DNA of 57,193 nucleotides from Candidatus Hydrogenedentota bacterium (GCA_045863295.1 BTWA01000039.1:1-57193); one strand, 5' to 3'. Positions 1-16,760 are shown, numbered from the stretch's first letter. Program-made: numbers and translations. The notes: generated by a model from the letters alone, not told the origin.

Positions 1-425
1 TCCACGTCGAGCTTGTCGAAGCACAACCCGGCTACGCGGGCCTTCGGCGGTTCCTGACCGATGGCCTGGCGGAACTCCGCAACGGCGGCGAGATCGGGCA
101 GTTTATCCGGATCCTGCACGAGATGGCGCAGTGTGATGAGCGTGTGCGTCTTGCCGCCGCCGTACGTGAGCTCGAGTTGGCGGACAGCCTTGTCGTTCTT
201 TCCCGCCACGCGGAGCATCACATCGCGCACAAGCTGTCGCAGGTTGTATGTCGGAAACGTCAAGGCGAAGAAGTTGTTCGGGTTTTCATACACCGGACGT
301 TTCCCGCTCTGCATCAGGACCTCGTACAGGTCCGCGGCGAACAGGTGCAGCGGGAGTTCGCCCGATTTGAGGTCGTCGCGCAATGTCACAACCTCATGCC
401 AGCTCTTCCAGGGTTGTTTTGCCAT
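1..425 (-). CDS. DUF499-family AAA+ ATPase, N-terminal part (runs off the window start; absent from the ORF track)
   Basis: Manual translation from ATG at 425: MAKQPWKSWHEVVTLRDDLKSGELPLHLFAADLYEV...FFALTFPTYNLRQLV...QLELTYGGGKTHTLI. PW..V..LR.D, FAADL, FF..T.PT and Walker A GGGKTH are DUF499 hallmarks. Purine-rich RBS upstream. Confidence 0.9.
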   Translation of the reverse strand, partial: MAKQPWKSWHEVVTLRDDLKSGELPLHLFAADLYEVLMQSGKRPVYENPNNFFALTFPTYNLRQLVRDVMLRVAGKNDKAVRQLELTYGGGKTHTLITLRHLVQDPDKLPDLAAVAEFRQAIGQEPPKARVAGLCFDKLDV

Positions 426-435
426 CTTCTTTTCC

Positions 436-1554
436 TTACGTCAGCTCGTCCGGTTCATGAATGACGACGACGCCGTTGGGGAGACCGTAACCTAACGGTT
501 CAAGTCTCGCGCGTTGATCTTTGAATTCCAATAACGAACGATTCACGCTTTCAAGTATCGTCGCCGTACTTCGTGCGAACAGGGCCTTGATGGTTGGCCC
601 ATAGAAGCCTATCGCGTCTCCGAATGGCGATTCGCCCAGTATCAATACTGGCAAGCCAGCGAGTCTCGGAAGCGCTGCATCTTCAAGGGGTGGAAAGGTC
701 TCCGGAAACGGGCGACGTGCGATAAGCCGTGCAGCAAGTACGTCGTGCCCCATGAATCGCAGCGCCTTGGCATAGGCGAGACGCACTACCATATCTGAGT
801 TTGGATTACGCTCCTGACTGGGCTCGCCTTCTGGGTCTCTCACAATCGTTGTAGTTTCTGATCTCGGGTGCCTGCTCTCCACGCAGAAATGGGTGCCGAT
901 TACGACACGACTACAAGTGCCTCGTAGCGGTTTACTCACAGGCCTCACGTTCTGCACCTGAGCCAATCCTTCGGGATCGATTCTTTGTGTGATAGAACTA
1001 TTCGTCCCCGTGGACCCCTTGCTTTCCGCCAAGACTGTTTCGCCTCGGCTATCTTCGCAGAAATAGTCAGGGCGGCCCTGAAGCGGTGGATTCACATACA
1101 CAAGCTCTCCGCGTTGAATGCATGCATACGCATCCGCGATGTGATCCAAGCCGAAGTGCTCTCGCAGGATGTAGCAGGTTATGCCCGTAGCTACCTCTTC
1201 CGATGCAACCGCCGTGAGACGCGGGTCCTTTTCTAGAACGCCTTCATAGAACCGCAGCCGCGTCGCCGTCCCTGCGAAATCGCCGCCATAACGGTACAAG
1301 GCAAACCACGACCGTGGATCCCACGAGGAAGTGGCAAGGGTCATCGCGATACCAGTCTCGATCAATAGCCGATGGAGACTGACCTTCATTGTCCCACCAG
1401 TTGGAAATGGCGTTGGCGGAGCATAGCCGGGTGGTTGCACCTCTATCTTCCACTCCCGCAGATCCGTTGGACTGGGCGCGAATGGCAAATGCCACGGCGC
1501 GAGTCGATACCGCGCGCGCCAAAAGGGCCAGCAATATTTGAAGAACGGATCCAC
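436..1554 (-). CDS. Hypothetical protein with putative PD-(D/E)xK nuclease motif
   Basis: 372-aa ORF packed between the DUF1156 and DUF499 genes. Contains PDYFCEDSRGETVLAESKG (PD...ExK). Confidence 0.6.
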   Translation of the reverse strand: MDPFFKYCWPFWRARYRLAPWHLPFAPSPTDLREWKIEVQPPGYAPPTPFPTGGTMKVSLHRLLIETGIAMTLATSSWDPRSWFALYRYGGDFAGTATRLRFYEGVLEKDPRLTAVASEEVATGITCYILREHFGLDHIADAYACIQRGELVYVNPPLQGRPDYFCEDSRGETVLAESKGSTGTNSSITQRIDPEGLAQVQNVRPVSKPLRGTCSRVVIGTHFCVESRHPRSETTTIVRDPEGEPSQERNPNSDMVVRLAYAKALRFMGHDVLAARLIARRPFPETFPPLEDAALPRLAGLPVLILGESPFGDAIGFYGPTIKALFARSTATILESVNRSLLEFKDQRARLEPLGYGLPNGVVVIHEPDELT

Positions 1555-1558
1555 GAAC

Positions 1559-4500
1559 TTACTGCTCCTCTTTCAGGCTGAGTTGGCTGTCGTCCCGTAT
1601 CGCGCCTTTGGCCTGGATGTGGTTGCTCAGGCTTTCGAGGAGCGACCGTTCTTCGCTGCCGGCGTTGGAAAGCTCGATAAGCGATTGGACGAGGCGTTTG
1701 AACAACTCCTGGCGGCGGAGGCCGTTGTCGTCGAGGTATTCGTCGACCTTATGCACGTCGCCGGCGCGCCACAGATGCATTAGACGGTGAACACGGTCGA
1801 TCAACGGGATTGGACGTCCACTAGGTGCTTCGTAGCCCATGGACGCGCGCTTGCGCTGGGCCCAGGTTTTCAACGCAATCTTGCTACCGGAATCGCCGTT
1901 GTCCTCCGGCTCTTCTTCGGAATCGGGATCGGGCTCTTCATCGTCTTCGTCACTCGTCGATCCGCCCTTGTGCGTCACCAGGTCCCAGATGGATTCGAGG
2001 TCGCGGTCGGAGAGTCCGCAGGCCGTGGCGTACAGGATGCACGCGCCCGCGGGCGCTTCGTCTAAACTGAAGTCGTGCCTGTGGAGCAGGTAGTAGGCCG
2101 TCGGCGAGTCCATGCGGTCGGCGGCGGCCATGTCGGAATCGCCCTTCTCGCCTGTGAGCACCTGGCCGACCACGAAATCGACCACCATCCGCCGCACGTG
2201 GGACAAAAACTCGCCCACGGACATGATCTCGTTCGCGGCGTTCGCTTTCTTGACGATGGGATGTTTGCTGTAGGCTTCCAGCGCCGGACCCGTCGCCGCC
2301 CACACAAAGTCAGGGCCCCGGATACCCGCGTCCCAGTATTCGCGCAGACGTTCTTTGATATTGGCGCGCATTTGTTCCATGACGATGTTGTCCCAGCCCG
2401 GACGGGCCGTCGCGGGGCGCTTCTTGCAGACGAGCCAGACGGAGGAGGAGAGGGCGGCGGATGCGTGAGCTCGCATTCTCGATTCTCTTTCCGTCTGAAT
2501 TGGCCAACTTCCATCCACTATAAAACCAGCTCGAATTATTGCGGAGACAAGCGTCTCCCAAGCATCGGGATGTTTATGCGCAAACACAATCACCAAGCAT
2601 CCATCAGCTTGGAGACTCTCATGACACGCAAGAAACGCGCGTGCCATACCGTCTTCATAGGTCTGCTTTGACTTTTTCGAATCGCCGCCATGACGACTAT
2701 CATCGTCAATCAGCTCTCCATCCTTATCCGAATGGTTCCACTTCGGCGAGATGACTTCACTTAGCCAACTCCCTTCTTCCAGCGAGGTACCTTGGATTGC
2801 CCGCTTAATCCAAACGTAGAAGAAGTCCATACAGTCTGAATATGGGATGGCGTCATAATAGGGAGGGTCTGTGACAATAAGGTCAACTCTTGTGGGGTTT
2901 GCTGAGATGGCCGAACCTTGCCTTATGCTTGGCTCTGGCGAGGCTTGAGTCGCGAGCAAGCCATGCTCGATCGAAAGTGAAACCCATCGAACAGCACTCT
3001 GATAACCGCCACCCTCAGAGGTTGTAGCGTTAATCTCTGCAAAATCCCAAACGATTGGGAGGGCAAATCGACCAAATGTATGTGCAACAAACTCCATGCT
3101 CATTGCCCACATACACAGCGTGCTTGAGTAGTCAGTGAATCGATCAAAGGCAATAACCAAATAGGCCGCGACTGCCTCGCGCCAGTCTGGTGGAAGACTG
3201 CCCTCGTTCACGGTGGCAACTTTGCGAAGCTGCTTAACGAGCGTTCCCAATGCCAGCAATTGCCGAGGAGAAAACAGGTCTCTCCATTGCATCAGGCCGT
3301 AACCTTGAATCGAAAAAGCTCTTGCTGCACCTCGACCACCACCCGCAGGCGTTGGTTCAGTGGGTAGACCAAACGGAATATCTGCGAAGACTTGTTCTAA
3401 TTCGCTTTCGGTTCTTACGGCACAATCGAGTTCATATGGTGTTGGCAGCCGATATGCCTTGCTCGTTTGGCTCTCTGTGATTACCGCTGTTGCAACTACG
3501 CCCAACCGCCGCGCTTTGCCCTCCGTGCGTATGTCTTCCATTGTCATTATTGCGGGACAGCAAGGGCACTTCGCGCCTGCCCGTGACATCGTACCGGCGC
3601 CCAACCGTTTGTCATGCTCCCGCTTCTGGGCTGCGTTGCCGCCCTGGGCCGGAACATTGTCCTGAATCCCGAACTCCACGCCGGTCTTGTCCGCGTTCGG
3701 TTGCATCGTGAGCAGCACCCGCTTGCGGTCTTTCTTGCAGAGCCAGCGTGTCTTCAGAAGCGGTACCACGGCGCGGCAGTTCTTGCACTTGACTGTGCGC
3801 GCCCAGAGATAGCCCACGGTGGGTTTGGCGACCCAGCGCGGGTTCTTCTTGTCGGCGAGGTATTCCTCCGAGAACTCGGCGTTTAACGCATTGATGTTCG
3901 CCCTTCCCTGGTCGTCGAGCGGCACGAGTTGCATGGGCTGTTTTTCGTAGGGCTTGGGATGCTTCGGGTCGAGGGGCTCGAAGTCGGCATAGGTCGGATA
4001 ATACGGCGCGAGTTCTTTCCGCGCTTCATTGAGCACCCAGCGGCCCCAGGCGCGCACGTGCCAGGCGAGGTCCGCCTTCGGCGTTCGGCCGCTGTCTTTC
4101 TTCCGGCTTTCCCAGAGGTCTTCCTGGGCTTCCTGCTCCTGTTTCTTCGTGCGCTTGGTCCGGCCGACGAGATGAGGATGGGCCTTGTAGAAGTCGTTCA
4201 TGAAATCCTCGTCGTCGAGGATAAAGTCCGGTAGTGGATGGGTCTTCCCCGCCAGCTTCTGGGGATATTCGAGCGTGCACTTAAGAATGAACCAGGCCAC
4301 GGGGTTGATGTCTGCCGCGGTGGTTTCGCAGCCCAGCCGCATGGCCTCGAGCGGAATGGCGCCGCCCCCGGCGAAGGGATCGAGCACCCGAGGCGCGCGC
4401 CCGCCGTAGGCCTTCTTAATTTGTTCCCGGAACCAGGCGAGTTCCTTCTCCCGGTGCGCGACAAGAGTTTGGTGTTGCTCCAGCTTCTTCCGTCCGCCCG

Positions 4501-4840
4501 ATTTCGGTTCCGTGCCGATCCAGCCGAGCACCCCGCCTTCCACTTCTTCTTTCACGCGCTCGACTACGCTGCCGTTCGGCATCTTCTTCTTTTCAATCTT
4601 CTGAACGACCTTGCCGCCGATCCGTTCGCACAGCTTCTGCCGTTCCTCCGGCGTCCCCGGGTCCGGCAACAGCGTCGCCAACAACGCCGCCCGGCACGCC
4701 GCCAACGGTCGCCGCGCCGGCCAGATATGCAACGTCGAAATGTGCCCATGCCGCACGTTCTTCTCATGCACCGAAGTCAGCGAAGCCTGCTTCAACGGAA
4801 ACGCGCGCTCAATTAGTCTGGGTTTGTTTGTATCACTCAT
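1559..4840 (-). CDS. DUF1156-domain adenine-specific DNA methyltransferase
   Basis: N-terminal LHIWPARRPLAACRA (DUF1156), SAM-binding LDPFAGGGAIPLEA, Zn ribbon CKNC...CPCC, catalytic TDPPY. Confidence 0.93.
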   Translation of the reverse strand: MSDTNKPRLIERAFPLKQASLTSVHEKNVRHGHISTLHIWPARRPLAACRAALLATLLPDPGTPEERQKLCERIGGKVVQKIEKKKMPNGSVVERVKEEVEGGVLGWIGTEPKSGGRKKLEQHQTLVAHREKELAWFREQIKKAYGGRAPRVLDPFAGGGAIPLEAMRLGCETTAADINPVAWFILKCTLEYPQKLAGKTHPLPDFILDDEDFMNDFYKAHPHLVGRTKRTKKQEQEAQEDLWESRKKDSGRTPKADLAWHVRAWGRWVLNEARKELAPYYPTYADFEPLDPKHPKPYEKQPMQLVPLDDQGRANINALNAEFSEEYLADKKNPRWVAKPTVGYLWARTVKCKNCRAVVPLLKTRWLCKKDRKRVLLTMQPNADKTGVEFGIQDNVPAQGGNAAQKREHDKRLGAGTMSRAGAKCPCCPAIMTMEDIRTEGKARRLGVVATAVITESQTSKAYRLPTPYELDCAVRTESELEQVFADIPFGLPTEPTPAGGGRGAARAFSIQGYGLMQWRDLFSPRQLLALGTLVKQLRKVATVNEGSLPPDWREAVAAYLVIAFDRFTDYSSTLCMWAMSMEFVAHTFGRFALPIVWDFAEINATTSEGGGYQSAVRWVSLSIEHGLLATQASPEPSIRQGSAISANPTRVDLIVTDPPYYDAIPYSDCMDFFYVWIKRAIQGTSLEEGSWLSEVISPKWNHSDKDGELIDDDSRHGGDSKKSKQTYEDGMARAFLACHESLQADGCLVIVFAHKHPDAWETLVSAIIRAGFIVDGSWPIQTERESRMRAHASAALSSSVWLVCKKRPATARPGWDNIVMEQMRANIKERLREYWDAGIRGPDFVWAATGPALEAYSKHPIVKKANAANEIMSVGEFLSHVRRMVVDFVVGQVLTGEKGDSDMAAADRMDSPTAYYLLHRHDFSLDEAPAGACILYATACGLSDRDLESIWDLVTHKGGSTSDEDDEEPDPDSEEEPEDNGDSGSKIALKTWAQRKRASMGYEAPSGRPIPLIDRVHRLMHLWRAGDVHKVDEYLDDNGLRRQELFKRLVQSLIELSNAGSEERSLLESLSNHIQAKGAIRDDSQLSLKEEQ

Positions 4841-6330
4841 ACGTTGTGCCCCGAAAAGGGAAGTTGCTTCAGTTTGTGCTCATTGACCAGGACCTTCTGG
4901 GCATCGAAAAAGCCCTCGATCAAATCCTTGGTTGATCTCCCCGATCCTTGCTCAATCTGGAAGGAATTCGCTGTGATTCTTATCGTGACGTCAAGACCAT
5001 CGACTTGGAGCGTGCAGAAGGAGCAATCCTTGTCAGTATCTACCGTGAGGCGTCCATCGTTCAGGTCTTCTATCTGGTCCACAATATCCGCAATATCGAA
5101 GAGAGTGTCGGATACAAACTCAAGCACGGTGAAAATGTCTCCAAAGGCCCTTTCAAATTCCGGCGACAATACAGCGTCGGGCGTACGGATACTTTCTATC
5201 TCCCGGTACCAGAGGGCTTCAGATGTGTCATCCGGATTGATTTGGACGGTCACAACATAGTTGAAGTCCGGCGTGATGATAGAGCCGCTCCCCTCTTCCG
5301 GGCCATCGGTCCTTATGTCACGTCTCTTGAGTCCGAAAGCCTCCTTGATACTCGCGTATTTGTCTTCAAGGTCCTGCTCCAACTCTTCTTGGGCAATTCT
5401 GGCAACGAAACTCTGTGCAGACTCGGAATCAGAGTCGGGAATGAAGTGGCCCTTTTTCTTATTGAACCCACTCAGGTGCACGATGCTGAGTGCATCGACA
5501 CCGCGGAGGACAATCCGTTTCAACTGTCGCATGTGGGGCATCGCAGCAGATCTGCGTGCTTCAAGAATATGCTTGACGTCCGCGATCAAGAACTCGCTAC
5601 TCTGTGCGCCATATAACCATGGCGTTTGGTGTCTCACGTCAGGGGAAGCTTGTCGAAGTGAACGCGGGACTTCCTGTTTCAAGAAATTCTGCAAAGACGA
5701 TGACGTGAGCAAATGCCCTCGCTCCAAAGCCAGAGGTGCTTCACCGTTGAGCGCTTGGATAATGTGATAGGTCCAAATCCCATGATTCAGTAGGCGTGAA
5801 GGATAGGAAGATTCATCCGGTTTACAGGCGGTGAAGCAGACACAGTGTTCGGATTTGTCAAAAAACTCCTCCAGCTCGCGTTCCGTGAGATCGGTGTAGA
5901 TGCCGCGGACTTTCGTACTCGCCAATATTCCACTCTCGCACGAATCCAAGAAAAGCATGACCTTGTTGCACAGAGAATTTCGAAACAAATCAAACAACCA
6001 TTGAACTGGAACGCTTGTTCGTTCAAGGTCGGCTACATCTGTGTCGTGGCAAGTGATATAGTTTTCACCGTTCTTGGCGAATCCATGACCGGCGTAATAG
6101 AAGCACAGCGTATCTCCTGCAGTGAGAGATCGGACGCGACGTCCCACTTGGGACTCGATACTCGTCTTCGTCGCTTTGTTGCTCAGCAGCAGTACCTGTT
6201 CGGTCTTATCAAATCCATGCTGCTCCAGTGCTGTCGACAACCCGAGCGCGTCGGCTTCGGCGTAGTCGACAGATGAGATCGAGGTATCGGAGTAATTCTC
6301 AACCGCGATCAGAATCGCGTACTTGCTCAT
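4837..6330 (-). CDS. Caspase-like (peptidase C14) protein with uncharacterised C-terminal domain
   Basis: Likely start MSKYAILIAVENY at 6330 (AGGAAGG RBS). His-Cys dyad motifs FYYAGHG and FLDSCESG. Stop overlaps the MTase start (ATGA). Confidence 0.88.
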   Translation of the reverse strand: MSKYAILIAVENYSDTSISSVDYAEADALGLSTALEQHGFDKTEQVLLLSNKATKTSIESQVGRRVRSLTAGDTLCFYYAGHGFAKNGENYITCHDTDVADLERTSVPVQWLFDLFRNSLCNKVMLFLDSCESGILASTKVRGIYTDLTERELEEFFDKSEHCVCFTACKPDESSYPSRLLNHGIWTYHIIQALNGEAPLALERGHLLTSSSLQNFLKQEVPRSLRQASPDVRHQTPWLYGAQSSEFLIADVKHILEARRSAAMPHMRQLKRIVLRGVDALSIVHLSGFNKKKGHFIPDSDSESAQSFVARIAQEELEQDLEDKYASIKEAFGLKRRDIRTDGPEEGSGSIITPDFNYVVTVQINPDDTSEALWYREIESIRTPDAVLSPEFERAFGDIFTVLEFVSDTLFDIADIVDQIEDLNDGRLTVDTDKDCSFCTLQVDGLDVTIRITANSFQIEQGSGRSTKDLIEGFFDAQKVLVNEHKLKQLPFSGHNV

Positions 6331-6364
6331 GAACTGCCTTCCTGATGATGTGTATGGGCAAACG

Positions 6365-8353
6365 TCATGTTTCAACACCTGTGTTCTTAAGAAACCTTCG
6401 GCCCGAAACCGCTGCAGGACACTGCGGCCCGAGTTCGTGAATGAACTGAGACGCGACCGTACTTGCGGTGCCCCCAATGGTCCGGCGCGTTCGGGCTCTC
6501 ATCTTGAATGCCGTAGCGGCGGGCAATCCGGTCACGGACGAAAGCACAACAGTTTGCCTGGTCCGAGTTATGGCAACGTAGAAGAGGCGACGCTGTTCTT
6601 CGATCGATACTTGCTGTTCGTGTTGGGATGCATCGGTATCAATGCTCGGTATGAGGCCTTGCAAACACCCGCTGACCACGACGAGGTCGGCGGTCAACCC
6701 TTTCGATTTGTGAAGACTCATGACGCGTACGTAGTCCACATCAGTAGGCATTTCTGGTTGAGACACAAAGCGCCTTATAGTGTCGACGAGTTTTTGTGGT
6801 CCGAAGTTGTCTTCCTCAATGCCGCCAGCGATATCCACGAACGGAGCCGCCCAGGCTTCCGCCGCAGGAAGCACCGCGTCAACCAAAGCTTGCCCCGTGA
6901 GGCTGTCAAGATTCGTCAGCAGTGTTTGTAGTTCCCGGAATCGGTCTATGATGTGCCCCGTGTGCGCAATCTTCAGGGCGCTGCTAGCCAGTTTCTCCAA
7001 CGCCTCCCACGGACTATCACCCTTCGATTCACAGTGTTCCCGCAGCCGTGCCCAGGCGCCATCCGCCAGTGTATTGCTGCCAAAGCCGCACCAGCAACGG
7101 AGCGCGACGCGATCATCGCGATTTGCCAAGAGCATCAACAAAGCCAGGGCCTGTTGAGCTTGCGACTGGTCATGTTTCTTGGGGTCTCCATCAAGGAGTT
7201 GCTCGCTGAAGAAACTATGCGCGGGGACATCCAGTGCATTGAGGTGGTCGCGCACCAGGTACCCGAACTCCCTGCGCGGCGCCAGAATAAGCACGCTCCC
7301 CGGCTCGACATCTCCAGAGTCGATGCGACTCTTGATAAAGGTGGCGATTCCGCGCGCCTCGGCATTCATTGACTGCCATTGGACTACATGAATCTCGCCC
7401 ATCGGATTGTCTGATGACGGCTGTAGTTGGCGGTTGCTACGTATTGTGTTGTTCGCGATTAAGGCGTTTGCCATCGCAACAACCGTCTGAGGGCACCGGC
7501 GACACAGGTCAAGGCCAACCTCTTCTGTGTTCGGGTGCGACCCAGGAAATTCAACGATTCCGGCCGGGTGAGCGTGCTTGAAGGAATATATGGACTGGTC
7601 TTCATCGCCGACGATCACCAGACTGCCATTGGCAAGCAAATCGACCAGATGTTGCTCCGCGCGATTCAAGTCCTGGTACTCATCCACAAGCAGATGGTCG
7701 AAATTGTCGCGATACGGCGATAGCGGGTTGTTACGAAGGTACTTGATGCCCTCGGGTATCAGTTCGCCGATGAGCATCGCTTCGTGGAACTTGAGCCAAT
7801 TTAGCAACGCGGATTGGAAGGCTCGGTCGGCAGGGTCCTGCGGCCAACCGGGCTGCTCATGTTGCAGCCGCGCCCAGGCGGCGGAGAAGGCGATGAGTTT
7901 CTTGCCGCACTCGCGAACACCGCCGAAGCCCGTTTTGCAAAGATCCTGCAGAAGAAACCTCTCCTCGAAACGCAGCAGTGGACGTGGCACGCGCCCTGTT
8001 GCCTCCAGCACATCCTGGGACGAGAGCATTGAAAAGCAGAAGCCATGGACTGTGTGGGTCTGGATTTCGTCGGCCCTATCCACACCAAGCTCCGCAATAG
8101 CCCGGGTAATGTCCTCAGCCGCAGTACGCGTGAAAGTGCATGCCAGAATCCGCCGTGGATTGGCCTTATCAACTTCCAAGAGACGCGTGATACGTCGCAT
8201 TAGCGCAAACGTCTTACCCGTCCCCGGACCGGCAACAACGCATAGTGGCGAGTTGGGAGAGGCCGCAATGGTGAGGGCTTGACCTTTTAGTCCGTCATTC
8301 CAAGGCATAGCCGTATCCTTTAGCGATGGTCTCTGTGATGGGTCGAAACTCAT
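6365..8353 (-). CDS. UvrD/Rep-family SF1 helicase
   Basis: AGPGTGKT, TFTRTAA, VDEYQD, VGDEDQSIY, MSLHKSKGL, EEQRRLFYVAITR. Alternative start at 8308. Confidence 0.93.
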   Translation of the reverse strand: MSFDPSQRPSLKDTAMPWNDGLKGQALTIAASPNSPLCVVAGPGTGKTFALMRRITRLLEVDKANPRRILACTFTRTAAEDITRAIAELGVDRADEIQTHTVHGFCFSMLSSQDVLEATGRVPRPLLRFEERFLLQDLCKTGFGGVRECGKKLIAFSAAWARLQHEQPGWPQDPADRAFQSALLNWLKFHEAMLIGELIPEGIKYLRNNPLSPYRDNFDHLLVDEYQDLNRAEQHLVDLLANGSLVIVGDEDQSIYSFKHAHPAGIVEFPGSHPNTEEVGLDLCRRCPQTVVAMANALIANNTIRSNRQLQPSSDNPMGEIHVVQWQSMNAEARGIATFIKSRIDSGDVEPGSVLILAPRREFGYLVRDHLNALDVPAHSFFSEQLLDGDPKKHDQSQAQQALALLMLLANRDDRVALRCWCGFGSNTLADGAWARLREHCESKGDSPWEALEKLASSALKIAHTGHIIDRFRELQTLLTNLDSLTGQALVDAVLPAAEAWAAPFVDIAGGIEEDNFGPQKLVDTIRRFVSQPEMPTDVDYVRVMSLHKSKGLTADLVVVSGCLQGLIPSIDTDASQHEQQVSIEEQRRLFYVAITRTRQTVVLSSVTGLPAATAFKMRARTRRTIGGTASTVASQFIHELGPQCPAAVSGRRFLKNTGVET

Positions 8354-8374
8354 GGACTCTGGCGCGCGTTAGCA

Positions 8375-11083
8375 TCACGTTACGCCCTCCATCGCAACGC
8401 CATCTCCCGGCACCCGCACGATGCGGGCACCCAGACCCGCATAGGGCGTGTCGTTGCAGGTAGCGATGACGATCTGACAGGCCTTGGCCGCTTCCTGGAG
8501 AATGAGGCAGAGGCGTTTCATACGGATGGGGTCGGCGTTTACGAGGCGATCGTCGATGACGACGAGGTTGCACTCCGCGCTGCTGACCAGTACGGCGATA
8601 GCGAGCCGCAGCAGGACCACCGTCTGTTCCTGGGCGCCGTGGCTGAGGCTCGTGAGGGGAAGATCGGCACTGTAGCGGGCCACGCGGACGCCGGCGGGTT
8701 TCAGGTCCTGGTCAATCTGAAGGACGTCGTAGTTGTCCTCGGTGAGAAGACGGAGCCAGCGGTTGACAATCTCCTGGACTGGACCCGATAGCGCCGCCGA
8801 GCGTTGCTTATCGTGGGCCAGCACGAGATCATGGAGAAGCTTCGCGCCATCGGCGCGGCGCTTAAGCACCTCGATACGCCGCCTCTTCCACTCAATCTCA
8901 ATTTCGGTGTCCGCGAGCTGACTGTAGTTCCCCTGCGCCGCCGCTTCCTCGATGCGTGCCCGCGTCTCCGCGATTTTGGTTCGGAGATCGCCTACTTGCC
9001 GCTCCAATTCCTGGACACGGCGTTGAGCCTGTTCGTGAAGCAGCCTCGGTGTCTCCACCTTCTCCGCGTAGTCGCCAAGGAGCGTTTCCAGATCCGCCGC
9101 TGTAATCTTGGCCTCTTCGCCAGCGCGCTCCACAAGCTCACGGAGGTGCTCGACGGTGCTGTAGGTCTTAAGGATCGCCGTGACACCTTCTTCGTGTGTC
9201 TTAATCTCGGCCTTATGTCCGGCCAACTGATTCGACGTGGTCTCCCGCGCACCCACGAGATCAAGGTGTTTTTGTAACGCGGCCTTTTCAGCTTTCTGCT
9301 CGTCGTCGATCTCGCGGACGAGTTGCTTTTTCTCCCGCTCCTTGGCGGCAATTTCGTCCCGGACCCACTGACCGCTCTTTTTCCGCGTCTCCGGCTGGAG
9401 AGCGCTTACGCCCCGCGTTTCTTCTTCGATTCCCCTCTTGACCCGCGCGATTTCGTCCTTGGCGTCTGGCTCGGCTGCTTCGGCTTCATCGAGGCTCTTC
9501 ACTAGCGTCGCGATGTCCCGATCTAGGTCGCGGCCCTTTTCATGTAGCGTCGCTATACCGTCCGCATCGGCCACACCGAAGCGTGTCAAGAATTGCTGGA
9601 ACTCTTGCTGGACCTTGTCTCTCTCGGCGACGAGGTCCTTCAAGGAGGCCGCATCGCTGCGCACCCGAATCTTTCCTACATTCTCAATTTCGAACTCGGT
9701 CGGTTCTGTGACGATGTATTCGTCTTCCTCGGCAGCACTCAGGCGGGGCGACGTTCTTACGTCGAGGGATTTGTTGGTCCACTCGAACGCCACCCGGATT
9801 GCGCTCGCCTCAACTTGCGCCTGGAGAACGCTGAGCTGCTTCGACACAGTCCCGAAACGCTTCCAATCCTTGTCGCTCGGGGACACGAGCTCGGCACGCT
9901 CTTTCCTGCGCGCTTCAAGTTGCGCTTCGATTTGGCTGACCTTTTCCAGGTGCTTCTCCAGGCGATCACGGTCCTTTTCGAGCTTCCGCAACCGTTCAAG
10001 GGCATGGAGGGCCTGGAGTTCGGTCTCAAGTTGCTTCAGACCGGGTTCAAGTTCCTCTTTCCAACGGCGTGCGTGGCGATCCCGTGCGGTTGCCTCCATC
10101 TTGATGTCGGCGGCGGCTTCCGACAGAGTTTCATCCAGTTCACCGATCTCGCTCCTAAGCGCCAGGATCTTCTTTTCAGTGTCTTCAATCTTAGACAAGT
10201 CCTGACGCAGACGCCGGGCCTTCTCTTCGGCTTCGCTCTTCGCCCGTTCCTTTGCCTCGCGGTCGCGTTCGTAGGCCTCCGCTGCCTGCACGCGTTCCGA
10301 CGATGCGGTCAGTTCGGCATTAGCATTGTCGAGCTCTGTTCGCTTCTCGGATTCCGAACCTTGAATCTCCTCCAAGTCCGAACGGTATGACTCGACGGAC
10401 TTGGCCTTTTCCAGTAGTCCGGCAAGGCGCTCCTCAAGCTTTGGCAACTCCGATTGCAGGCGCGCCAGATCGCTACTCGCAACGATGCGGCCTGTCGGCG
10501 TCCAATGCTCGCTGTAGCTTGCTTTGACCCGTTCCAGAACAGCCGTCTCGATGGGCGAGCGCGTGGCCAACGGCACGAGGCCCCCCAATCCCTGCTTTAC
10601 GCCGTTGTTCCAAGTTTTGTCAGGAATGGCCCCATCGGACTGGAGATACCACAGGGCTTGGGCCAGACCGCGGTGTTCGGAGCGTGCAGCTGTGCGCGAG
10701 GTCGCCTCGCCCCGCAGAATTTCGCGCAGTTGCGCGTCGGCTGCATCGCCCTCGTGATCCAACTCCCAAGATCCGCCGCGCTCGGAGTAAAGTTCGCTCC
10801 TGGCGTCTTGAAGGAAGCGCTTGACGGCCCGATACCGCTGCCCGTTCGCCCGGAACTGGATCTGTGCTTCCGGACCTAGGCTGCTGCCGATGGGCTGGAT
10901 GGCGCGAATCTCCTCCGTCTTGGAGTTGTGCCGGTCGAACAGTACGCGCGTGAGCGACTCGAAGAGCGTGGACTTGCCGGCCTCGTTTCTGCCCACCAAC
11001 AGATTGATGCCATCTTGGAAATGGAACGTGTGTGGTTCGCGGTAGCCACGCCAATTCTTGATCGTTATTTGTTCGATGATCAC
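8375..11083 (-). CDS. SbcC/Rad50 (YhaN-like) coiled-coil ABC ATPase
   Basis: Walker A GRNEAGKST, long coiled coil, signature LSHG, Walker B VVIDD. Overlaps the upstream nuclease stop. Confidence 0.88.
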   Translation of the reverse strand: MIIEQITIKNWRGYREPHTFHFQDGINLLVGRNEAGKSTLFESLTRVLFDRHNSKTEEIRAIQPIGSSLGPEAQIQFRANGQRYRAVKRFLQDARSELYSERGGSWELDHEGDAADAQLREILRGEATSRTAARSEHRGLAQALWYLQSDGAIPDKTWNNGVKQGLGGLVPLATRSPIETAVLERVKASYSEHWTPTGRIVASSDLARLQSELPKLEERLAGLLEKAKSVESYRSDLEEIQGSESEKRTELDNANAELTASSERVQAAEAYERDREAKERAKSEAEEKARRLRQDLSKIEDTEKKILALRSEIGELDETLSEAAADIKMEATARDRHARRWKEELEPGLKQLETELQALHALERLRKLEKDRDRLEKHLEKVSQIEAQLEARRKERAELVSPSDKDWKRFGTVSKQLSVLQAQVEASAIRVAFEWTNKSLDVRTSPRLSAAEEDEYIVTEPTEFEIENVGKIRVRSDAASLKDLVAERDKVQQEFQQFLTRFGVADADGIATLHEKGRDLDRDIATLVKSLDEAEAAEPDAKDEIARVKRGIEEETRGVSALQPETRKKSGQWVRDEIAAKEREKKQLVREIDDEQKAEKAALQKHLDLVGARETTSNQLAGHKAEIKTHEEGVTAILKTYSTVEHLRELVERAGEEAKITAADLETLLGDYAEKVETPRLLHEQAQRRVQELERQVGDLRTKIAETRARIEEAAAQGNYSQLADTEIEIEWKRRRIEVLKRRADGAKLLHDLVLAHDKQRSAALSGPVQEIVNRWLRLLTEDNYDVLQIDQDLKPAGVRVARYSADLPLTSLSHGAQEQTVVLLRLAIAVLVSSAECNLVVIDDRLVNADPIRMKRLCLILQEAAKACQIVIATCNDTPYAGLGARIVRVPGDGVAMEGVT

Positions 11084-12213
11084 GGCTGAGCCTCTCTGAC
11101 GAGTCGATGCAGGAGGACCCTCGCCTCGTTAACAGTCTCCGGATCCGCGACAGCGAATTCCCGTCCGGGTCCTTCAGGTAGCCTGCCGTCCAAGATGGCA
11201 TCGAGGTCTTCGTCAACCTGCAGGAGGAGGCCTTCCGGAATTGTCGCAAGTGCAAGCGGTGATGCGTCCAGCGCCTCCACCGGCCAGTCCAGGAAAAACG
11301 CCTCCGCCTCAAGTTCATCCCTTAAGGACCGCAGCTCATCCAATACGTCCGCCGATACATCCGGGTCAATTTGTGGAGTGATGCGGAGAAGTTGAGTCGA
11401 GAGTGGTCCGACATCGCGCACCGTGTTACGGAGTTGCTCGACGTCCGACGCGTCGCGAATCAGAAGTTCGTGCTCGGTCCACGTAAGAGCCCCTACCCGG
11501 TGTTTTGACACTATGGGTTCAGTTCTTGGGCCGGATATCTCGACGATAACAACGTTGCCTGGGTCTTTTTCGCTAAAGCTCGATTGCTCCATCGTGCCCG
11601 AGTATATGGTTCGCCCATGTTGTGCGAAACCATGCCAGTCGCCGAGCGCGAGGTAATCGAGACCCGCGGTATCAGCCCGCATGGCAGAGATCGGAAAATT
11701 GGTCCGCTCGGGCAAAATGTCCAATGCCCCATGCGCGATGCCTATCCGTATTCGTTTGTCGTCCGGTTCCCGCACCGGAATTCGTTCAGTCGGGTCAAGC
11801 GCACTCTGCTTTTGCTTCAAGGGCGCCGGGTATAGGGTGACGTCGTCGCGGAAGCGAACTTCGTTGGCCACGTGAAGCAACGTAACGTGGTCCCCGACAC
11901 GCTGCCAGCTTTGGCGGTCCCAGACGCCGCCGGCGATGTACGGATCGTGGTTGCCGGGCAATACGAATACGGGAATGGGAGCAAAGTTGTCGAGGACGGT
12001 GACTGTTTTTCGGACGACCAAATCGTCGACATCGTGGTGTTCGAACAGGTCGCCCGCTAGGAGCACGAAGTCGACGCCTTCACGCTTCGCCAACTCCATG
12101 ATCCGCTCGGCTGTCTCAAAACGCTTGGCGCGGACGTCCTTCGCCTTCTGTCCGGCATTGAGTGCTTTCATGCCCATCTGCCAGTCAGCAGTGTGGAGGA
12201 ATTTTACAGACAT
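11080..12213 (-). CDS. SbcD/Mre11-like metallophosphoesterase nuclease
   Basis: HTADWQMG, AGDLFE, PGNHD, AHG and LGDWH motifs. Confidence 0.92.
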   Translation of the reverse strand: MSVKFLHTADWQMGMKALNAGQKAKDVRAKRFETAERIMELAKREGVDFVLLAGDLFEHHDVDDLVVRKTVTVLDNFAPIPVFVLPGNHDPYIAGGVWDRQSWQRVGDHVTLLHVANEVRFRDDVTLYPAPLKQKQSALDPTERIPVREPDDKRIRIGIAHGALDILPERTNFPISAMRADTAGLDYLALGDWHGFAQHGRTIYSGTMEQSSFSEKDPGNVVIVEISGPRTEPIVSKHRVGALTWTEHELLIRDASDVEQLRNTVRDVGPLSTQLLRITPQIDPDVSADVLDELRSLRDELEAEAFFLDWPVEALDASPLALATIPEGLLLQVDEDLDAILDGRLPEGPGREFAVADPETVNEARVLLHRLVREAQP

Positions 12214-12298
12214 GGCGTGATCCTCCTGGGCGTGATACGCTGAATCCGTTCACGCATCCAGGTCAAGTGCACGTCAGGTGAGCAATAGCTTTCATTTG

Positions 12299-15200
12299 TC
12301 ATACCTGCCCGACCTCCATGATTTGCGTATGCCCAATACGCACTCCTCCGGATTCAACGGTCGCGCGAATGGTGCGCTCGACGGATTGGGCGCGGCTAAA
12401 CGGCTTGACGAGGAGGTTTGTAAAGGGATCCTGCACACGAACGAGTTGCGGAGATGATGATCCGCACTGGTAGACGACGTACAGCCAGTAATCTTCGCGC
12501 AGGTTACAGGCTCGCGCCCATTCGTTGTCCGTCACCTGAATTTCGCCGACGCCGATGCACCCTTTAACCTCTATGCACCGCCGCCGCTGACCGGGACGCG
12601 TACTAAGCAGATCGAACCCCGGATGCTCCGGCAAACCCGCGGCCCGGGCGAGCTTGGCCGTGTGAACGAACTTCACGCTGCCGCCCTCGGCCTCTTCGAA
12701 GGCCTTGGCGAGGTCCATTGCGATCTGTTCCACGTTCGCGTCGCGCCATTCGAGGTCCGCGGGATCGGTGGAGGGCACGACCAATGCATGGGCAATGAAG
12801 TCGACATCGCCTGGGACGAGCAACTCGGGTTCGCGTCGGATGATGCTCAGCGCGCGTTCGCGGCGGTCTCCCAACTCGCGTTGCTGCGTTTTGATTTGCG
12901 TCAATTCCGCGGCAGCGCCTTTGTTGCCAGCGCGGGCCTTCTGGCTCAGCTTGCCCCTCGCCGCGGCGAGCTCCGCCTCTTGATAATCGAACCCGCGGCG
13001 GACGAAGGTCTCGCGTTCAGGGAGGGTCGCCATGCGCCGTTCGCGGCATTCGACCGCCAATGATCGACAGACCCGTTCGGTGAGGTAGGCACGGGCCTGG
13101 TCGCGCTGGCGTGATGCGTCCACTGCGAGTCGCTGTGCCTGGGGAGGCAAACCATGGCCGCCGCGCAGGAGGAGCAAGTGCTCGATGGGACACACGGAGA
13201 TTTCGGCACTCTCGGTCTGCTTGATGCCGACCAGACGGCACTCGACCGTTTCTTCGTGCGCCAGTTCCGTGAACTCCGGATCCGCTTTTCGGATAACCGT
13301 CAGACGAGCGAGGTGGAAGAGATAAGGTTTATCCGCTGTAGGATCCACGAACACCGCGCCGCGCAGGGCATCTTTGCCAAGTTTCTCGCGCACGAGTCCG
13401 CGAAAACGCTCAAAGACCGGCTCGCCGGGATGCACCCAAACGCAGGACTGCCGGTCGTCGGGACGGACGACGGACAGGCGCTGGGCCTGCACGGCGGGGT
13501 AGGCGTCGAGAGCAGGGAGAAGCGGATCGATGGCCCCCTTCCGCGCGGGGCGAAGGCGAAATATGCCGCCCAGGTCACCATCCACATCGATGCCGATTTG
13601 CGGCGCAGCAGACGCGATGAACTTGCGCACATAGCCGGGCAGCAAACGGAAGTAGGTTTCTTGCTCAATGCTCTCGCGAAGCCGGGGGAGTTCCCGTTTC
13701 ACGTCTCCGCCATCGCCGTACAGGCGACGCTCCTGCTCCTGAATGGCCTTGACCTGTTCTGCGGTCAGACGGCCCTCCAGTTCGGACGCAATCTGGTCGA
13801 CGTCGTCGCCGGCAGCGATCCGTTCCATATAGGTCTTAATGGAAACCTCGGTGAAGATGCGGCCTATGCTGTCGAAGACCTTGTCGGACTTGAGTTGCTT
13901 TCGGATCTTTTCGAGCTTCTCCAACAGAGTCTTGAGGACGCGCCCTTCCCGGGTCGCTGGAGCGACGAGATTCAGAATGATTACCGGGTCGTGCTTCTGT
14001 CCATAGCGGTGGATGCGCCCCATCCGTTGTTCGAGGCGCGCTGGGTTCCAAGGCACATCGTAGTTGATCATAATCCAGCAGAACTGGAGATTGACGCCCT
14101 CTGCGGCCGCGTCGGTGCAAACCATGAAGCGAGCGCCGCCTTCGGATGCGGGGGCGCGGAAGCGGTCTATTTGTTCTTGGCGTTCCGTGAAATGCATGCC
14201 ACCGTGTATCTGCGCAATCTGGCCGGTGTATCCGAGACCGCTCAGGCGTCGCGTGAGGAATTCAAGCGTGTCGCGATGCTCGGTGAAGACGAGAAGTTTT
14301 TCCTGGGCGTACTTGTCGTCCGTGACAACGTCGCGCAACTTCTCGAACTTCGATTCGATGCCACGCTGATACACCGACTCTGCAAGATCGCGCAACTGCA
14401 CGACTTGCTCACGCTCCGCGATTAGGTCCGCAAGCGACGCCGCGATAACGCCCTGGAGCAACTTCTCTTCGGAGGCTTCGTTTTCTTCGATGCCTTCTTC
14501 CTGGGATTCCTCATCCGCCGACTTCGATTCGAACACATCGTCGTCTTCGCGAATCCTGCGCTGGAGCGTGATGAGCTGCTCAATCGTAATGCGACCCGAC
14601 TGAACGTCATCAATAATTCCGTTGAGCTTCGCGATGCGGCGTTTGAAAGAACACAGCAACGCATACGTTGAACTTGCCAGACGGCGCTGGAAAACACCCA
14701 TGGCCAAACGCGCGGCCGATTGGTTCAAGAGCTTCGCGCGGTTGTACACATAACGAAGGTATTCCGTTGTTTCGTCGTACAGCTTCTGCTCGCTGATATC
14801 CCCCTGCGAAAGCGCGTAGCCGAGTGTGTCAGAGAAACGCTTTGGATATAGGGGCTGCCCGTCAAGCCGGACCATTTCCTCCTTCGTACGCCGGATGAAA
14901 TAGTGGTGGCGCTGCGAGGATGGGAAATCGCTGAATGCTTCTGGAGTCGATAGTACGTCCGGTTCCAGCAAACGCCACAGGGCATAATATGGATACTCCT
15001 TGCCCATGTGCGGAGTGGCGGTCAACAGCAGCAGGTGATGCGCATGCCAAGGCAATTGCCAACCGCGTTCCCGGTTGTCGACACCAGCGAGCGCTTCGGC
15101 GAGTTTGTAACGTCCGGTTTTTCGAATACGGAAATCGGCGCCGCGGTCGCAGGATAGTTTGTGCGCTTCATCGAAAACGACGAGTTCGTAGGGTTCTACG

Positions 15201-15910
15201 CCCTCCTCACCGAGACGGCCAAAGACCTTATCGCCGGCCAAGGTATCGACACTAACAATGACGCGATCACCGCCCGGACCGACAAAGGGGTTCCGATTCT
15301 TGGCGTCGCTACCACTTACAATGGTGAACGATAGTCCGAAAAGAATCTGAAGCTCCCGTTGCCAGTTTCCGACGAGTCCCGCGGGTGGAACGATTAGCAC
15401 GCGGCTCAAGACCCGGCGGGACAGCATCTCCCTGATGTAGAGGCCAGTCATGATCGTTTTGCCCGCGCCCGCGTCGTCGGCGAGGAGGAATCGCAGGCGA
15501 GCCTGCTTGAGCATGTGGTCGTAAACTGCGATGCGCTGGTGGGGCAGCGGGTCGATGCTCGCGATTTCGGTTGCGAAAGTTGGGTTGGCGAGATGGCCGA
15601 AGGAAAGACGTTCTCCTTCGACGAGGCACTTCACCACGTCGGGGACTACCGTAAAGTCGATTTTCGGCGGCGCGTTGCCATACGGAGGAGGTTCGGGTTC
15701 GGCTACGTGAGATGGTTCATCAAACTCCTCGGCAATCTGGCGCAAGCGATTCCAGGAGAGTTGCGACGGCTCCGACTTTCCGTTCTCCCACCGATTTACC
15801 GTCGGAAAAGAGACACCAAGCCGCTCCGCTAGGCTTACTTGGGTTAGCCCAAGTCGTGCGCGAAGCCGCTTTATTTCCTCGGCAAAGTTTTCGGTCGGAG
15901 TCGACTCCAT
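12299..15910 (-). CDS. XRE-HTH + SNF2-family helicase + C-terminal DUF3883-like nuclease domain
   Basis: N-terminal LGLTQVSLAERLGVSFPTVNRWENGK; ADDAGAGKT, DEAH, TATPH, EGVNLQ, EQRMGRIHRYGQ; C-terminal GFDLLS...IEVKG...NEW...YWLYVV. Confidence 0.92.
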   Translation of the reverse strand: MESTPTENFAEEIKRLRARLGLTQVSLAERLGVSFPTVNRWENGKSEPSQLSWNRLRQIAEEFDEPSHVAEPEPPPYGNAPPKIDFTVVPDVVKCLVEGERLSFGHLANPTFATEIASIDPLPHQRIAVYDHMLKQARLRFLLADDAGAGKTIMTGLYIREMLSRRVLSRVLIVPPAGLVGNWQRELQILFGLSFTIVSGSDAKNRNPFVGPGGDRVIVSVDTLAGDKVFGRLGEEGVEPYELVVFDEAHKLSCDRGADFRIRKTGRYKLAEALAGVDNRERGWQLPWHAHHLLLLTATPHMGKEYPYYALWRLLEPDVLSTPEAFSDFPSSQRHHYFIRRTKEEMVRLDGQPLYPKRFSDTLGYALSQGDISEQKLYDETTEYLRYVYNRAKLLNQSAARLAMGVFQRRLASSTYALLCSFKRRIAKLNGIIDDVQSGRITIEQLITLQRRIREDDDVFESKSADEESQEEGIEENEASEEKLLQGVIAASLADLIAEREQVVQLRDLAESVYQRGIESKFEKLRDVVTDDKYAQEKLLVFTEHRDTLEFLTRRLSGLGYTGQIAQIHGGMHFTERQEQIDRFRAPASEGGARFMVCTDAAAEGVNLQFCWIMINYDVPWNPARLEQRMGRIHRYGQKHDPVIILNLVAPATREGRVLKTLLEKLEKIRKQLKSDKVFDSIGRIFTEVSIKTYMERIAAGDDVDQIASELEGRLTAEQVKAIQEQERRLYGDGGDVKRELPRLRESIEQETYFRLLPGYVRKFIASAAPQIGIDVDGDLGGIFRLRPARKGAIDPLLPALDAYPAVQAQRLSVVRPDDRQSCVWVHPGEPVFERFRGLVREKLGKDALRGAVFVDPTADKPYLFHLARLTVIRKADPEFTELAHEETVECRLVGIKQTESAEISVCPIEHLLLLRGGHGLPPQAQRLAVDASRQRDQARAYLTERVCRSLAVECRERRMATLPERETFVRRGFDYQEAELAAARGKLSQKARAGNKGAAAELTQIKTQQRELGDRRERALSIIRREPELLVPGDVDFIAHALVVPSTDPADLEWRDANVEQIAMDLAKAFEEAEGGSVKFVHTAKLARAAGLPEHPGFDLLSTRPGQRRRCIEVKGCIGVGEIQVTDNEWARACNLREDYWLYVVYQCGSSSPQLVRVQDPFTNLLVKPFSRAQSVERTIRATVESGGVRIGHTQIMEVGQV

Positions 15911-15939
15911 TCATCTTGTCCTAGTCTGAACTTTGAAGA

Positions 15940-15968
15940 AGTATAACAAACTTTATATCAGCGATCAA
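15940..15968 (-). promoter_or_regulatory. Putative sigma70 promoter of the defence operon with overlapping palindrome
   Basis: Minus strand TTGATC-N17-TATACT. TATAA-caaact-TTATA palindrome at 15942-15957 overlaps the -10 and spacer. Confidence 0.5.
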
Positions 15969-16760
15969 CACAACACGCGATATATGGCGTATCGCGGACT
16001 TTCTCGCGGTTTGATTAGAATAGGTGCCATTGGCGTAAGGCACTGAATAAGAAGAACTTATAGCATAACAAGTGCGGTCGACCCTGGAAAATGCCTCTTG
16101 AGATGTTTGCCGTGACACTGGAGCATCGTCAAACCAAAGGCGCCGAGCAGACAGACCCGGGATAGATCGCGTCCGAGGCCAAAGCGGTGCGTCACCCCCG
16201 ATTTCCAACCGATTGAAAGACTTTTCCAATAGACAGACAATACCCGCGATTCGACATACAATGTGGTCCGTCATGCAATTCAATTCGTCAGTTGCAGACA
16301 GGGAGAGTGACTCACGGGTGAAGACTTACGCCTTTCGGCGTCAACGGCTGTTGACGCGAGGGCGTGGAAGGATGAATGCTAGCGTAACCTTTGTGCGTGA
16401 CAGGAGGGATCCAATTCCCCAAGTGTTCAGTACCCTTCTCGCTGCTGCGAGCATGGCTTCTGGCGACCGGTGCTGCGCAATACCTGCAAGGGCATGACCG
16501 GTCATGAGTATCGCACGCCGTTTAGACAGGAATTTGACTGCGTCCGGCCGAGTCGGCAAACCCGTCCGCAGATCCGCAAGAAACGCTCATCTGTCGGCAC
16601 TACTTTTAGGCGGCAGGCCGTCAGTTCCAACACCTTCGTGTTCGGTAGATTGAAGAACCCCTGGTCTCCCCTGACAGGTCGCGGGGCAAGTATCATTTCC
16701 GGCAACACTCACAGAACTTCTCACCGCAAACTGTTACTGCAAAAGAACTTGAGATGTCAA

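Follow-up and report, generated by a model that had tools for sequence, protein, structure and literature searches.

A Candidatus Hydrogenedentota Hma operon that probably stacks four separate cargo units at its insertion junctions

The Hma core and its inserted genes

We analyzed contig BTWA01000039.1 (1-57193) of a Candidatus Hydrogenedentota bacterium (GCA_045863295.1), a stretch of 57,193 nucleotides that is the entire contig C39 of its assembly (G000) and is called the window below. Eight co-oriented minus-strand open reading frames (ORFs), closely packed, fill positions 3-15910 (Table 1), and our ORF calls bore out the tight packing and the overlapping ends reported in a preliminary description of this DNA. 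Domain calls by PADLOC and Pfam agree with the gene labels given there, the PD-(D/E)xK label of ORF7 being reached via its motif and fold matches. The same description took the DUF499, DUF1156 and SNF2 genes for a restriction-like core related to BREX. PADLOC recognized HmaA, HmaB and HmaC as an Hma core, and on these matches we assign it to the Hma system, alias the Type-1 DUF499-centred BREX-related (BR) system. The exact gene combination was absent from about 200 related loci (31 for the caspase, 80 for the SbcD-like gene, 85 for UvrD and 20 other Hma loci of the phylum), which agrees with the earlier remark that it was not known as a described system. Judging from these comparisons, the locus is probably an Hma operon whose two known insertion junctions have gathered four evolutionarily separate cargo units, that is, an island stacked in one operon and not an eight-part machine. 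This is the best-supported account of the locus, and in it the SbcD/SbcC-like pair, the caspase and ORF7 would behave as independent cargo.

Table 1. Features of the Hma locus in the window, in the order of transcription, with G+C content at third codon positions (GC3)
Feature	Coordinates	Strand	Length and matches	GC3
Upstream leader	15911..16232	-	~320 nt; 79% identity with the C16 leader (blastn); one promoter-like site	
hmaA	12299..15910	-	1203 aa; PADLOC HmaA 2.8e-147; Pfam Helicase_C 3.4e-24, SNF2-rel_dom, NOV_C 2e-15, HTH_3 7e-12	0.69
SbcD-like, cargo unit 1a	11080..12213	-	377 aa; SbcD/Mre11-like metallophosphoesterase; Pfam Metallophos 8.3e-13	0.65
SbcC-like, cargo unit 1b	8375..11083	-	902 aa; SbcC/Rad50-like ABC ATPase; Pfam SMC_N, AAA_15, AAA_23	0.71
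UvrD, cargo unit 2	6365..8353	-	662 aa; SF1 helicase; Pfam UvrD-helicase 8.8e-42, UvrD_C 2e-20	0.62
Caspase, cargo unit 3	4837..6330	-	497 aa; Pfam Peptidase_C14 1.1e-14	0.59
hmaB	1559..4840	-	1093 aa; PADLOC HmaB 6.9e-114; Pfam DUF1156 2.1e-18, MethyltransfD12	ends 0.78; insert 0.54
ORF7, cargo unit 4 (hmaB/hmaC junction)	436..1554	-	372 aa; PD-(D/E)xK core, family without a name	0.57
hmaC, 5' part	3..425	-	first 141 aa of a DUF499 AAA+ ATPase; PADLOC HmaC 1e-21, DUF499 3.5e-11	0.78

From hmaA to hmaC, the intergenic spacings are 85, -4, 21, 34, -4, 4 and 10 nt, and the stop and start codons overlap by 4 nt in the SbcD-like/SbcC-like and caspase/hmaB pairs. This tight spacing suggests that all eight genes would be co-transcribed from upstream of hmaA. 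The hmaA leader holds a sigma-70-like site with an extended -10 at 15968-15940; promoter and terminator scans gave nothing above the shuffled expectation (7 promoter-like sites vs. 6.2 expected). The caspase had been called as the longest ORF, from 6477, which is too long: its homologues have about 495 amino acids (aa) and the database entry 497 aa, placing the start at 6330, and since the gene starts there it does not overlap UvrD. Unit by unit, GC3 forms a composition mosaic, with 0.78 at the hmaB ends and hmaC vs. 0.54-0.71 in the hmaB insert and the cargo.

The general phenomenon of genes inserted in hma operons is already published: about 66.5% of hma loci hold genes between hmaA, hmaB and hmaC, the inserts named being Septu, PARIS, Ppl, an AAA_21 pair and a GmrSD-like gene, and the operon was termed a defence-gene insertion hotspot (PMC11232893). 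The name Hma goes back to the PADLOC paper, which counted 1,638 instances across 26 phyla (PMC8565338), and the system has since been reclassified as the Type-1 DUF499-centred BREX-related system (PMC12839542). In Halomonas meridiana, protection by HmaA against T4 depends on the NOV_C nickase; HmaA is a nickase in vitro, and this step, in Halomonas, is the one step of the core mechanism demonstrated in that work (PMC11232893).

HmaA of the window combines an SNF2 helicase with a C-terminal NOV_C PD-(D/E)xK nuclease, the PADLOC model spanning residues 92-1164, and its motifs are intact (GAGKT148, DEAH247 and D..EVK, with EVK at 1114-1116). HmaB joins a DUF1156 N-terminus to an N6-adenine methyltransferase with a nested recognition insert; motif I (LDPFAGGG153) and motif IV (DPPY658) are intact, and the variable insert, around residues 361-840, lies within the 500-residue gap from motif I to motif IV and extends beyond motif IV. 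The 141 N-terminal residues of HmaC present on the contig match the PADLOC model. The locus shares with Hma the three core families, their order and orientation, the intact D..ExK of NOV_C, the DUF1156 methylase with its nested insert, and, as published, insertions at the hmaA/hmaB and hmaB/hmaC junctions. It differs in that hmaC is incomplete in this assembly, in that the SbcD/SbcC-like, UvrD, caspase and ORF7 cargo is not among the inserts named in the text of PMC11232893, and in that HmaA starts with an XRE-type helix-turn-helix (HTH) domain at residues 9-66 (window 15713-15886; HTH_3 7e-12), ahead of the residue-92 start of the PADLOC model. The HmaA paralogue on contig C16 carries the same N-terminal HTH, which may serve self-regulation of the operon. 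By analogy with the families, HmaB would methylate adenines within a motif that its inserted recognition region specifies and the AAA+ ATPase HmaC would sense or load on unmarked DNA; HmaA would translocate and then nick or cut via its NOV_C nuclease.

Related Hma loci with other cargo

The assembly holds two further Hma loci. On contig C16 (L004, G000:C16:1-15806), HmaA is 98% identical to that of the window at the aa level and 93% at the DNA level, and the N-terminus of HmaC is 98% identical. Its hmaA/hmaB junction holds a complete type II CBASS set (SAVED nuclease, CD-NTase, E1-E2 and JAB) and its hmaB/hmaC junction a short prokaryotic Argonaute (pAgo) with a SIR2 protein. Between the two HmaB proteins, residues 361-720 (window 2321-3760) are 27-47% identical vs. 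93-100% at both ends, so that the central region looks like a swapped target-recognition region. The third locus, on contig C8 (L008/L009, G000:C8:76036-99994), is more distant from the window and more canonical. Five genes lie in its hmaA/hmaB junction, among them TmtA-like (1403 aa), HEC-05/PDC-M55C-like, pAgo-associated-like and PDC-M28B-like genes, and one of 347 aa in its hmaB/hmaC junction. Since the C16 and C8 loci carry other genes in the same junctions, one Hma scaffold accepts different cargo.

The truncation of hmaC is not due to clipping of the window: the window is the whole contig, and it is the contig end that cuts the gene. Contigs C39 and C16 both stop inside hmaC, 141 and 168 codons in, and the assembly gives three HmaC matches, full length only in the C8 copy, the rest of the window's hmaC being absent. 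These ends suggest an assembly break at a repeat common to both loci.

Across the phylum, HmaA was matched at E<=1e-50 in 36 of 135 genomes. We surveyed 20 other Hma loci, 16 of which show both hmaA and hmaB, and found ORFs between the two genes in 13 of these 16. According to Pfam, the inserts comprise DarT with Macro, an AAA_15/AAA_21 ATPase with a partner, Schlafen/AlbA_2, RhuM with HAD, DUF6119, DUF6338, an IS200-like gene, and UvrD-like helicases with a deaminase or an unknown gene. One Hma locus of the window's type (L159, G094:C26, 12302-16581) has a distant UvrD-like helicase followed by a 685-aa cytidine/dCMP deaminase-domain protein, and in L160 type II CBASS genes follow hmaA up to the contig end. 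In L154, the 5' end of the window's hmaB matches twice (G014:C25:1062-1158 and 2761-2819), the second copy adjoining the hmaA stop, which looks like a duplicated hmaB start left by cassette insertion. The cargo borders of the window, checked for duplicated hmaB starts or other seams, showed short chance-like repeats only. A DNA search of 40 relatives returned short hmaA/hmaB stretches only, and the window's locus is common to none of them.

The remainder of the window (17289-57193) encodes ordinary metabolism, without mobile-element genes or tRNA. Two molybdopterin oxidoreductase clusters, at 37.8-46.3 kb and 48.0-55.6 kb, contain nitrate-reductase-like subunits; the region also holds a MoaA-like radical SAM gene, ChrB and parts of ABC transporters.

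Distribution and features of the cargo genes

The UvrD helicase keeps its motifs intact (GPGTGKT42, DEYQD224). Five close relatives were found in genomes, two of them between hmaA and hmaB (L131, L132) and one between hsdS and hsdR (L134). Metagenomes returned at least 564 relatives, whose contexts were judged for the best 80: Hma genes adjoin in 16 and type I restriction-modification (RM) genes in 4, while six more loci lie beside other restriction genes (N6_N4 methylases, an Eco57I-type enzyme, ResIII-Mrr and Mrr). Other neighbours were Abi_C, SIR2, Schlafen, integrases and transposases; the SbcD/SbcC-like or caspase families of the window stand beside UvrD in none of these 80 loci. The order HmaA-UvrD-HmaB-(small gene)-HmaC recurs in L132, L168, L177 and L184. 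Members of the family also sit between type I hsdS and hsdR in L134, L215 and L228, with a stop/start overlap or near-touch in L134 and L215.

We then placed these proteins on a quick maximum-likelihood tree of 74 rows. All 15 Hma-embedded ingroup UvrDs fall in one clade of 28 (SH-aLRT 99), compared with 0 of the 44 other ingroup rows, and the Hma label changes 10 times on the tree vs. a shuffled mean of 15.5, a value equalled in 0 of 500 shuffles. The sister clades are found within restriction operons of type I and other kinds. The Hma-linked clade spans Hydrogenedentota, Armatimonadota, Rhodothermota and Planctomycetota (the last three names from record titles and the tree output). Our results point to UvrD as the one extra gene likely working with the core, and HmaA-UvrD-HmaB-HmaC is a recurrent Hma variant for which we found no description in the literature searched.

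The anticodon nuclease PrrC is embedded between hsdS and hsdR of the type Ic system EcoprrI and is an RNase restrained by the restriction enzyme. The UvrD clade is likewise found inside a restriction operon in L134, L215, L228 and Hma; the embedded gene here differs from PrrC in being a DNA helicase. Its product would probably assist the restriction enzyme, unwinding from the nicks or ends which that enzyme leaves. One locus (L190, ~4056-10500) carries hsdM, three small genes, a UvrD of the window's clade, a canonical SbcD (Metallophos and SbcD_C) and a 1083-aa gene; it is the sole other UvrD-with-SbcD neighbourhood among the loci examined.

The SbcD-like protein has 316 relatives in the genome-wide scan, and the top homologues listed are 51-87% identical, nearly all of 363-397 aa, from bacteria and archaea. 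Contexts were counted in the best 80 of these relatives. An SbcC-like ATPase of about 900 aa directly follows in 74 of the 80 loci, and most of the six without a partner stop at a contig edge. Neither Hma genes (0/80) nor caspase genes (0/80) occur in them; the 80 loci gave one weak SNF2 match (E 2e-08) and four weak UvrD matches, to AddA-like proteins of about 1100 aa. The closest relatives of the pair neighbour SIR2-HerA, OLD-type AAA_15-TOPRIM, a Schlafen helicase with MazG, HsdS/HsdM and transposases. Among the more distant relatives, those of 43-49% identity have ordinary neighbours, and those of 35-45% adjoin AddAB-like or ordinary metabolic genes. Within the phylum, a match of about E 1e-61 or better was found in 5 of 135 genomes, including the window's own assembly, where an ordinary SbcD also lies on contig C34, 33% identical to that of the window.

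Plasmids carry relatives as well, at about 35% identity: 142 plasmids, 82 of them conjugative, with the gene beside AbiE, RelE/ParD or a WYL-flanked RecB-like gene. On the conjugative Sphingobium plasmid pNIN3 (L243, NZ_CP102668.1 75791-83913), a TM0106-family RecB-like nuclease is followed by an SbcD-like exonuclease and an AAA ATPase; WYL-domain genes flank this operon on both sides, and HEPN and DUF3883 genes adjoin. The phage collection gave eight weak SbcD-like matches (24-28% identity), without sign of phage origin.

Both proteins score far below the curated cutoffs for canonical members (NCBIfam sbcd, 42.5 bits vs. 77.65; Rad50 PRK03918, 73.4 bits vs. 700). The 902-aa SbcC-like protein carries a long coiled-coil insert. 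The CxxC zinc hook that marks the apex of the coiled coil in SbcC/Rad50 is absent from the whole protein, and the window protein and 42 homologues show no conserved Cys pair. Its conserved residues are N33, G36, K37, T39, Q148, S814, G816, D844, D845, T875 and C876. The Walker B motif reads DD and the signature S-H-G, and a conserved T-C near the C-terminus lies at what we take to be the position of the H-loop His. Canonical phosphoesterases of this type have five motifs with His ligands. In the SbcD-like protein, GD, GNHD and the motif IV His are conserved, motif I reads D-W-Q and motif V G-D-W-H, so that the motif I His is replaced with Gln and the first motif V His with Asp; the altered ligands may still bind metal.

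Like SbcCD/Mre11-Rad50, the pair couples translationally a calcineurin-type phosphoesterase gene to a Rad50/SMC-type ATPase gene of about 900 aa with a long helical insert. It differs from SbcCD in lacking the zinc hook, in its altered ligands and ATPase motifs with scores far under the NCBIfam cutoffs, and in being an extra copy beside an ordinary SbcD, mobile across domains and present on plasmids. Gabija consists of GajA, an OLD-type ABC ATPase joined to a TOPRIM nuclease, and GajB, a UvrD-like helicase. Some likeness to Gabija also exists, as an ABC-type ATPase gene precedes a UvrD-family helicase gene, PADLOC GajB models match the helicase (2.1e-51) and GajA models the P-loop of the ATPase (2.4e-12). 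Unlike in Gabija, no TOPRIM is found in the ATPase by Pfam, the GajA matches being limited to residues 1-55; moreover, an SbcD-like nuclease partners the ATPase, and helicase and pair are separate in nearly all other loci. We rejected a Gabija-like or Lamassu-like identity for the SbcC-like protein: the models match the P-loop or coiled coil only and TOPRIM is absent. PADLOC-DB v2 has no model for the pair. We read the pair as a separate mobile SbcCD-like two-gene unit which, moving among bacteria, archaea and conjugative plasmids, would probably attack DNA ends or structures by itself.

The caspase consists of a Peptidase_C14 domain (residues 1-250) and a C-terminal domain of about 235 aa. 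The His-Cys dyad is present on a caspase fold, H82 being invariant and C131 at least 90% conserved in 26 sequences; the AlphaFold2 (AF2) model (pLDDT 86.6) matches the MALT1 paracaspase in Foldseek at 1.6e-13. For the C-terminal domain, the Foldseek listing was filled by caspase-domain matches; in Atlas, the same tail appears on another caspase cluster (TM 0.70) and on a TIR cluster (TM 0.53), a lead only. At E<=0.001 there are 126 relatives, mostly full length. The 31 caspase loci come from a scan with a 9-sequence alignment, the 26-sequence alignment being too diverse for a locus scan; a scan with the single protein found one distant locus, without synteny. Two of the 31 lie in Hma, namely L011 (UvrD, a DUF3644 gene, caspase, HmaB, HmaC) and L026 (HmaA, caspase, HmaB), and the other 29 share no common neighbour family, the largest neighbour cluster being present in three loci.

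The model of EACC1-associated caspases (NCBIfam NF047832) gave 91.7 bits, under its cutoff of 140. With the bacterial caspase-like immune proteases described in the sources consulted (the type IV Thoeris caspase and gasdermin-activating proteases), the window's protein shares the C14 fold, the intact dyad and a defence context; it differs from them in having no adjacent TIR, gasdermin or STAND partner and in carrying a fused C-terminal domain, about 235 aa long; it usually stands alone. A single-protein caspase with such a sensor-like C-terminal domain would probably be an abortive-infection protease.

ORF7 has no Pfam, PADLOC or NCBIfam match, and no Pfam family was found in the 42 members scanned. 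Its 158 representative relatives at E<=0.001 have about 370-390 aa, and 42 sequences share the invariant residues G124, D141, D163, E177, K179, Q199 and G361, with the motif D..D..ExK..Q. The AF2 model (pLDDT 89.2) gave nothing at E<=0.001 in Foldseek; the top structural neighbours in VIA are nearly all PD-(D/E)xK nucleases over residues 112-245, at a modest Z of 5.0-5.4, and include Hjc, YqaJ-type and alkaline exonucleases, EcoRV and the HsdR nuclease domain. With the catalytic motif (D163, E177, K179) and these fold matches, ORF7 fits the PD-(D/E)xK superfamily, in which the D...(D/E)xK motif lies on an alpha-beta-beta-beta-alpha-beta core, and would be a stand-alone nuclease of a family without a name. 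Relatives occur in 5 of 135 phylum genomes, one of them in another Hma locus, between hmaA and hmaB. The 347-aa gene that occupies the hmaB/hmaC junction at C8, as ORF7 does in the window, was rejected as a relative (hhalign probability 0.1).

Alternative readings and significance

The preliminary description had joined all eight genes in one layered system, in which Hma discriminates via methylation and cuts, UvrD and the SbcD/SbcC-like pair resect and destroy the DNA, ORF7 is a second nuclease and the caspase kills as a backup. Such a system would be in keeping with the co-orientation, the short gaps and the two overlapping stop/start pairs, with the recurrence of UvrD beside the core, with the joint presence of UvrD and caspase in L011, and with the "auxiliary and backup effectors" proposed in BREX-type loci (PMC12839542). 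We nevertheless consider it unlikely, given the published hma inserts and the distributions above. The description had tied its proposal to accessory genes recurring with the core: the SbcD/SbcC-like pair never does so (0/80), the caspase hardly ever (2/31, with 29 loci outside Hma), and UvrD does so often. Moreover, every partial combination occurs, from UvrD alone (L132, L168, L184) or caspase alone (L026) to UvrD with AbiE (L131) and UvrD with DUF3644 and caspase (L011); the 98%-identical HmaA paralogue on C16 sits with CBASS and pAgo genes at the same positions, and GC3 varies from unit to unit.

Quite unlikely, too, is a repair or housekeeping role for the SbcD/SbcC-like pair and UvrD, in which they would mend nicks or breaks self-inflicted by Hma, as an anti-autoimmunity function, and would not attack invaders. 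The metabolic and AddAB-like neighbours of the more distant SbcD-like relatives would suit this role, and so would the flanking of the plasmid version of the pair by WYL regulators, which are linked to DNA damage. HmaA is also a nickase in vitro (PMC11232893). Against this, the assembly already has its ordinary SbcD at C34, the close SbcD-like clade (60-87% identity) is common to bacteria and archaea and lies among SIR2-HerA, OLD, Schlafen and RM genes, and three kinds of restriction operon harbour the UvrD clade. A chimeric join in the metagenome bin could also have produced the gene order, as the contig breaks off inside hmaC close to where C16 does and the assembly has 88 contigs with 2.24% contamination. 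We hold such an artefact to be highly improbable: all eight frames are open, the junctions are coupled, and independent assemblies repeat sub-orders of the locus (UvrD-x-caspase-HmaB-HmaC in L011, HmaA-x-UvrD-HmaB in L131 and L169, HmaA-caspase-HmaB in L026).

Several observations weigh against a stack of independent cargo units. From the long association of UvrD with Hma it follows that not every "cargo" gene is a mere passenger. The tree is a quick search, relatedness alone can give some clustering, and many of the "other" UvrD contexts are short contigs whose flanks are out of sight. The short gaps and the two stop/start overlaps, including that of caspase and hmaB, fit co-translation and could reflect functional coupling. 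A functional link of the caspase with Hma is possible: in each of the three Hma loci with a caspase, the window included, the gene immediately precedes hmaB, and the caspases of Hma loci are among the closest relatives of the window's own (53-58% identity). SF1 helicases of other families are found near SbcD/SbcC-like pairs, AddA-like in L048, L068, L082, L100 and L102 and RecB-like on pNIN3, and in L190 UvrD is followed by SbcD. Because SF1 helicases lie near such pairs in several loci, SbcCD and UvrD could act together here. Finally, the assembly looks like a metagenome-assembled genome, so that co-binned strains could be the source of its three Hma loci.

None of the literature texts searched yielded the exact cargo, the HmaA-UvrD-HmaB-HmaC variant or the hook-less SbcCD-like unit. 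Word searches of the main texts of PMC11232893 and PMC12839542 gave no UvrD/SF1 accessory, caspase or SbcC in an hma/BR context, their supplementary tables, which were beyond the scope of the search, being a place where UvrD, caspase or metallophosphatase neighbours may be listed; likewise, UvrD was not found in an hma context in the main text of PMC8565338. Three candidates that PADLOC-DB v2 does not recognise as systems emerge from the survey: the restriction-embedded UvrD clade, the hook-less mobile SbcD/SbcC-like pair and the single-gene caspase with a sensor-like tail.

As a tentative proposal, which we hold to be possible and would not favour, the UvrD clade could be a fourth component of an Hma subtype, in a family that helps ATP-dependent restriction systems including type I, and the hook-less SbcD/SbcC-like pair could at the same time be a new stand-alone anti-phage or anti-plasmid system spreading among archaea, bacteria and conjugative plasmids. 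If this is true, the UvrD helper would turn the nicks or cuts of restriction systems into degradable DNA; should Hma or type I restriction require UvrD, well-studied classes of enzymes would gain a subunit of a new kind.

For Hma itself, the locus shows a restriction-like operon serving as a rack for other immune genes. The near-identical scaffolds in one assembly, with wholly different cargo and methylase recognition regions, amount to a natural cassette-swap experiment, in which the swapped HmaB inserts predict two different methylation motifs for the C39 and C16 loci.

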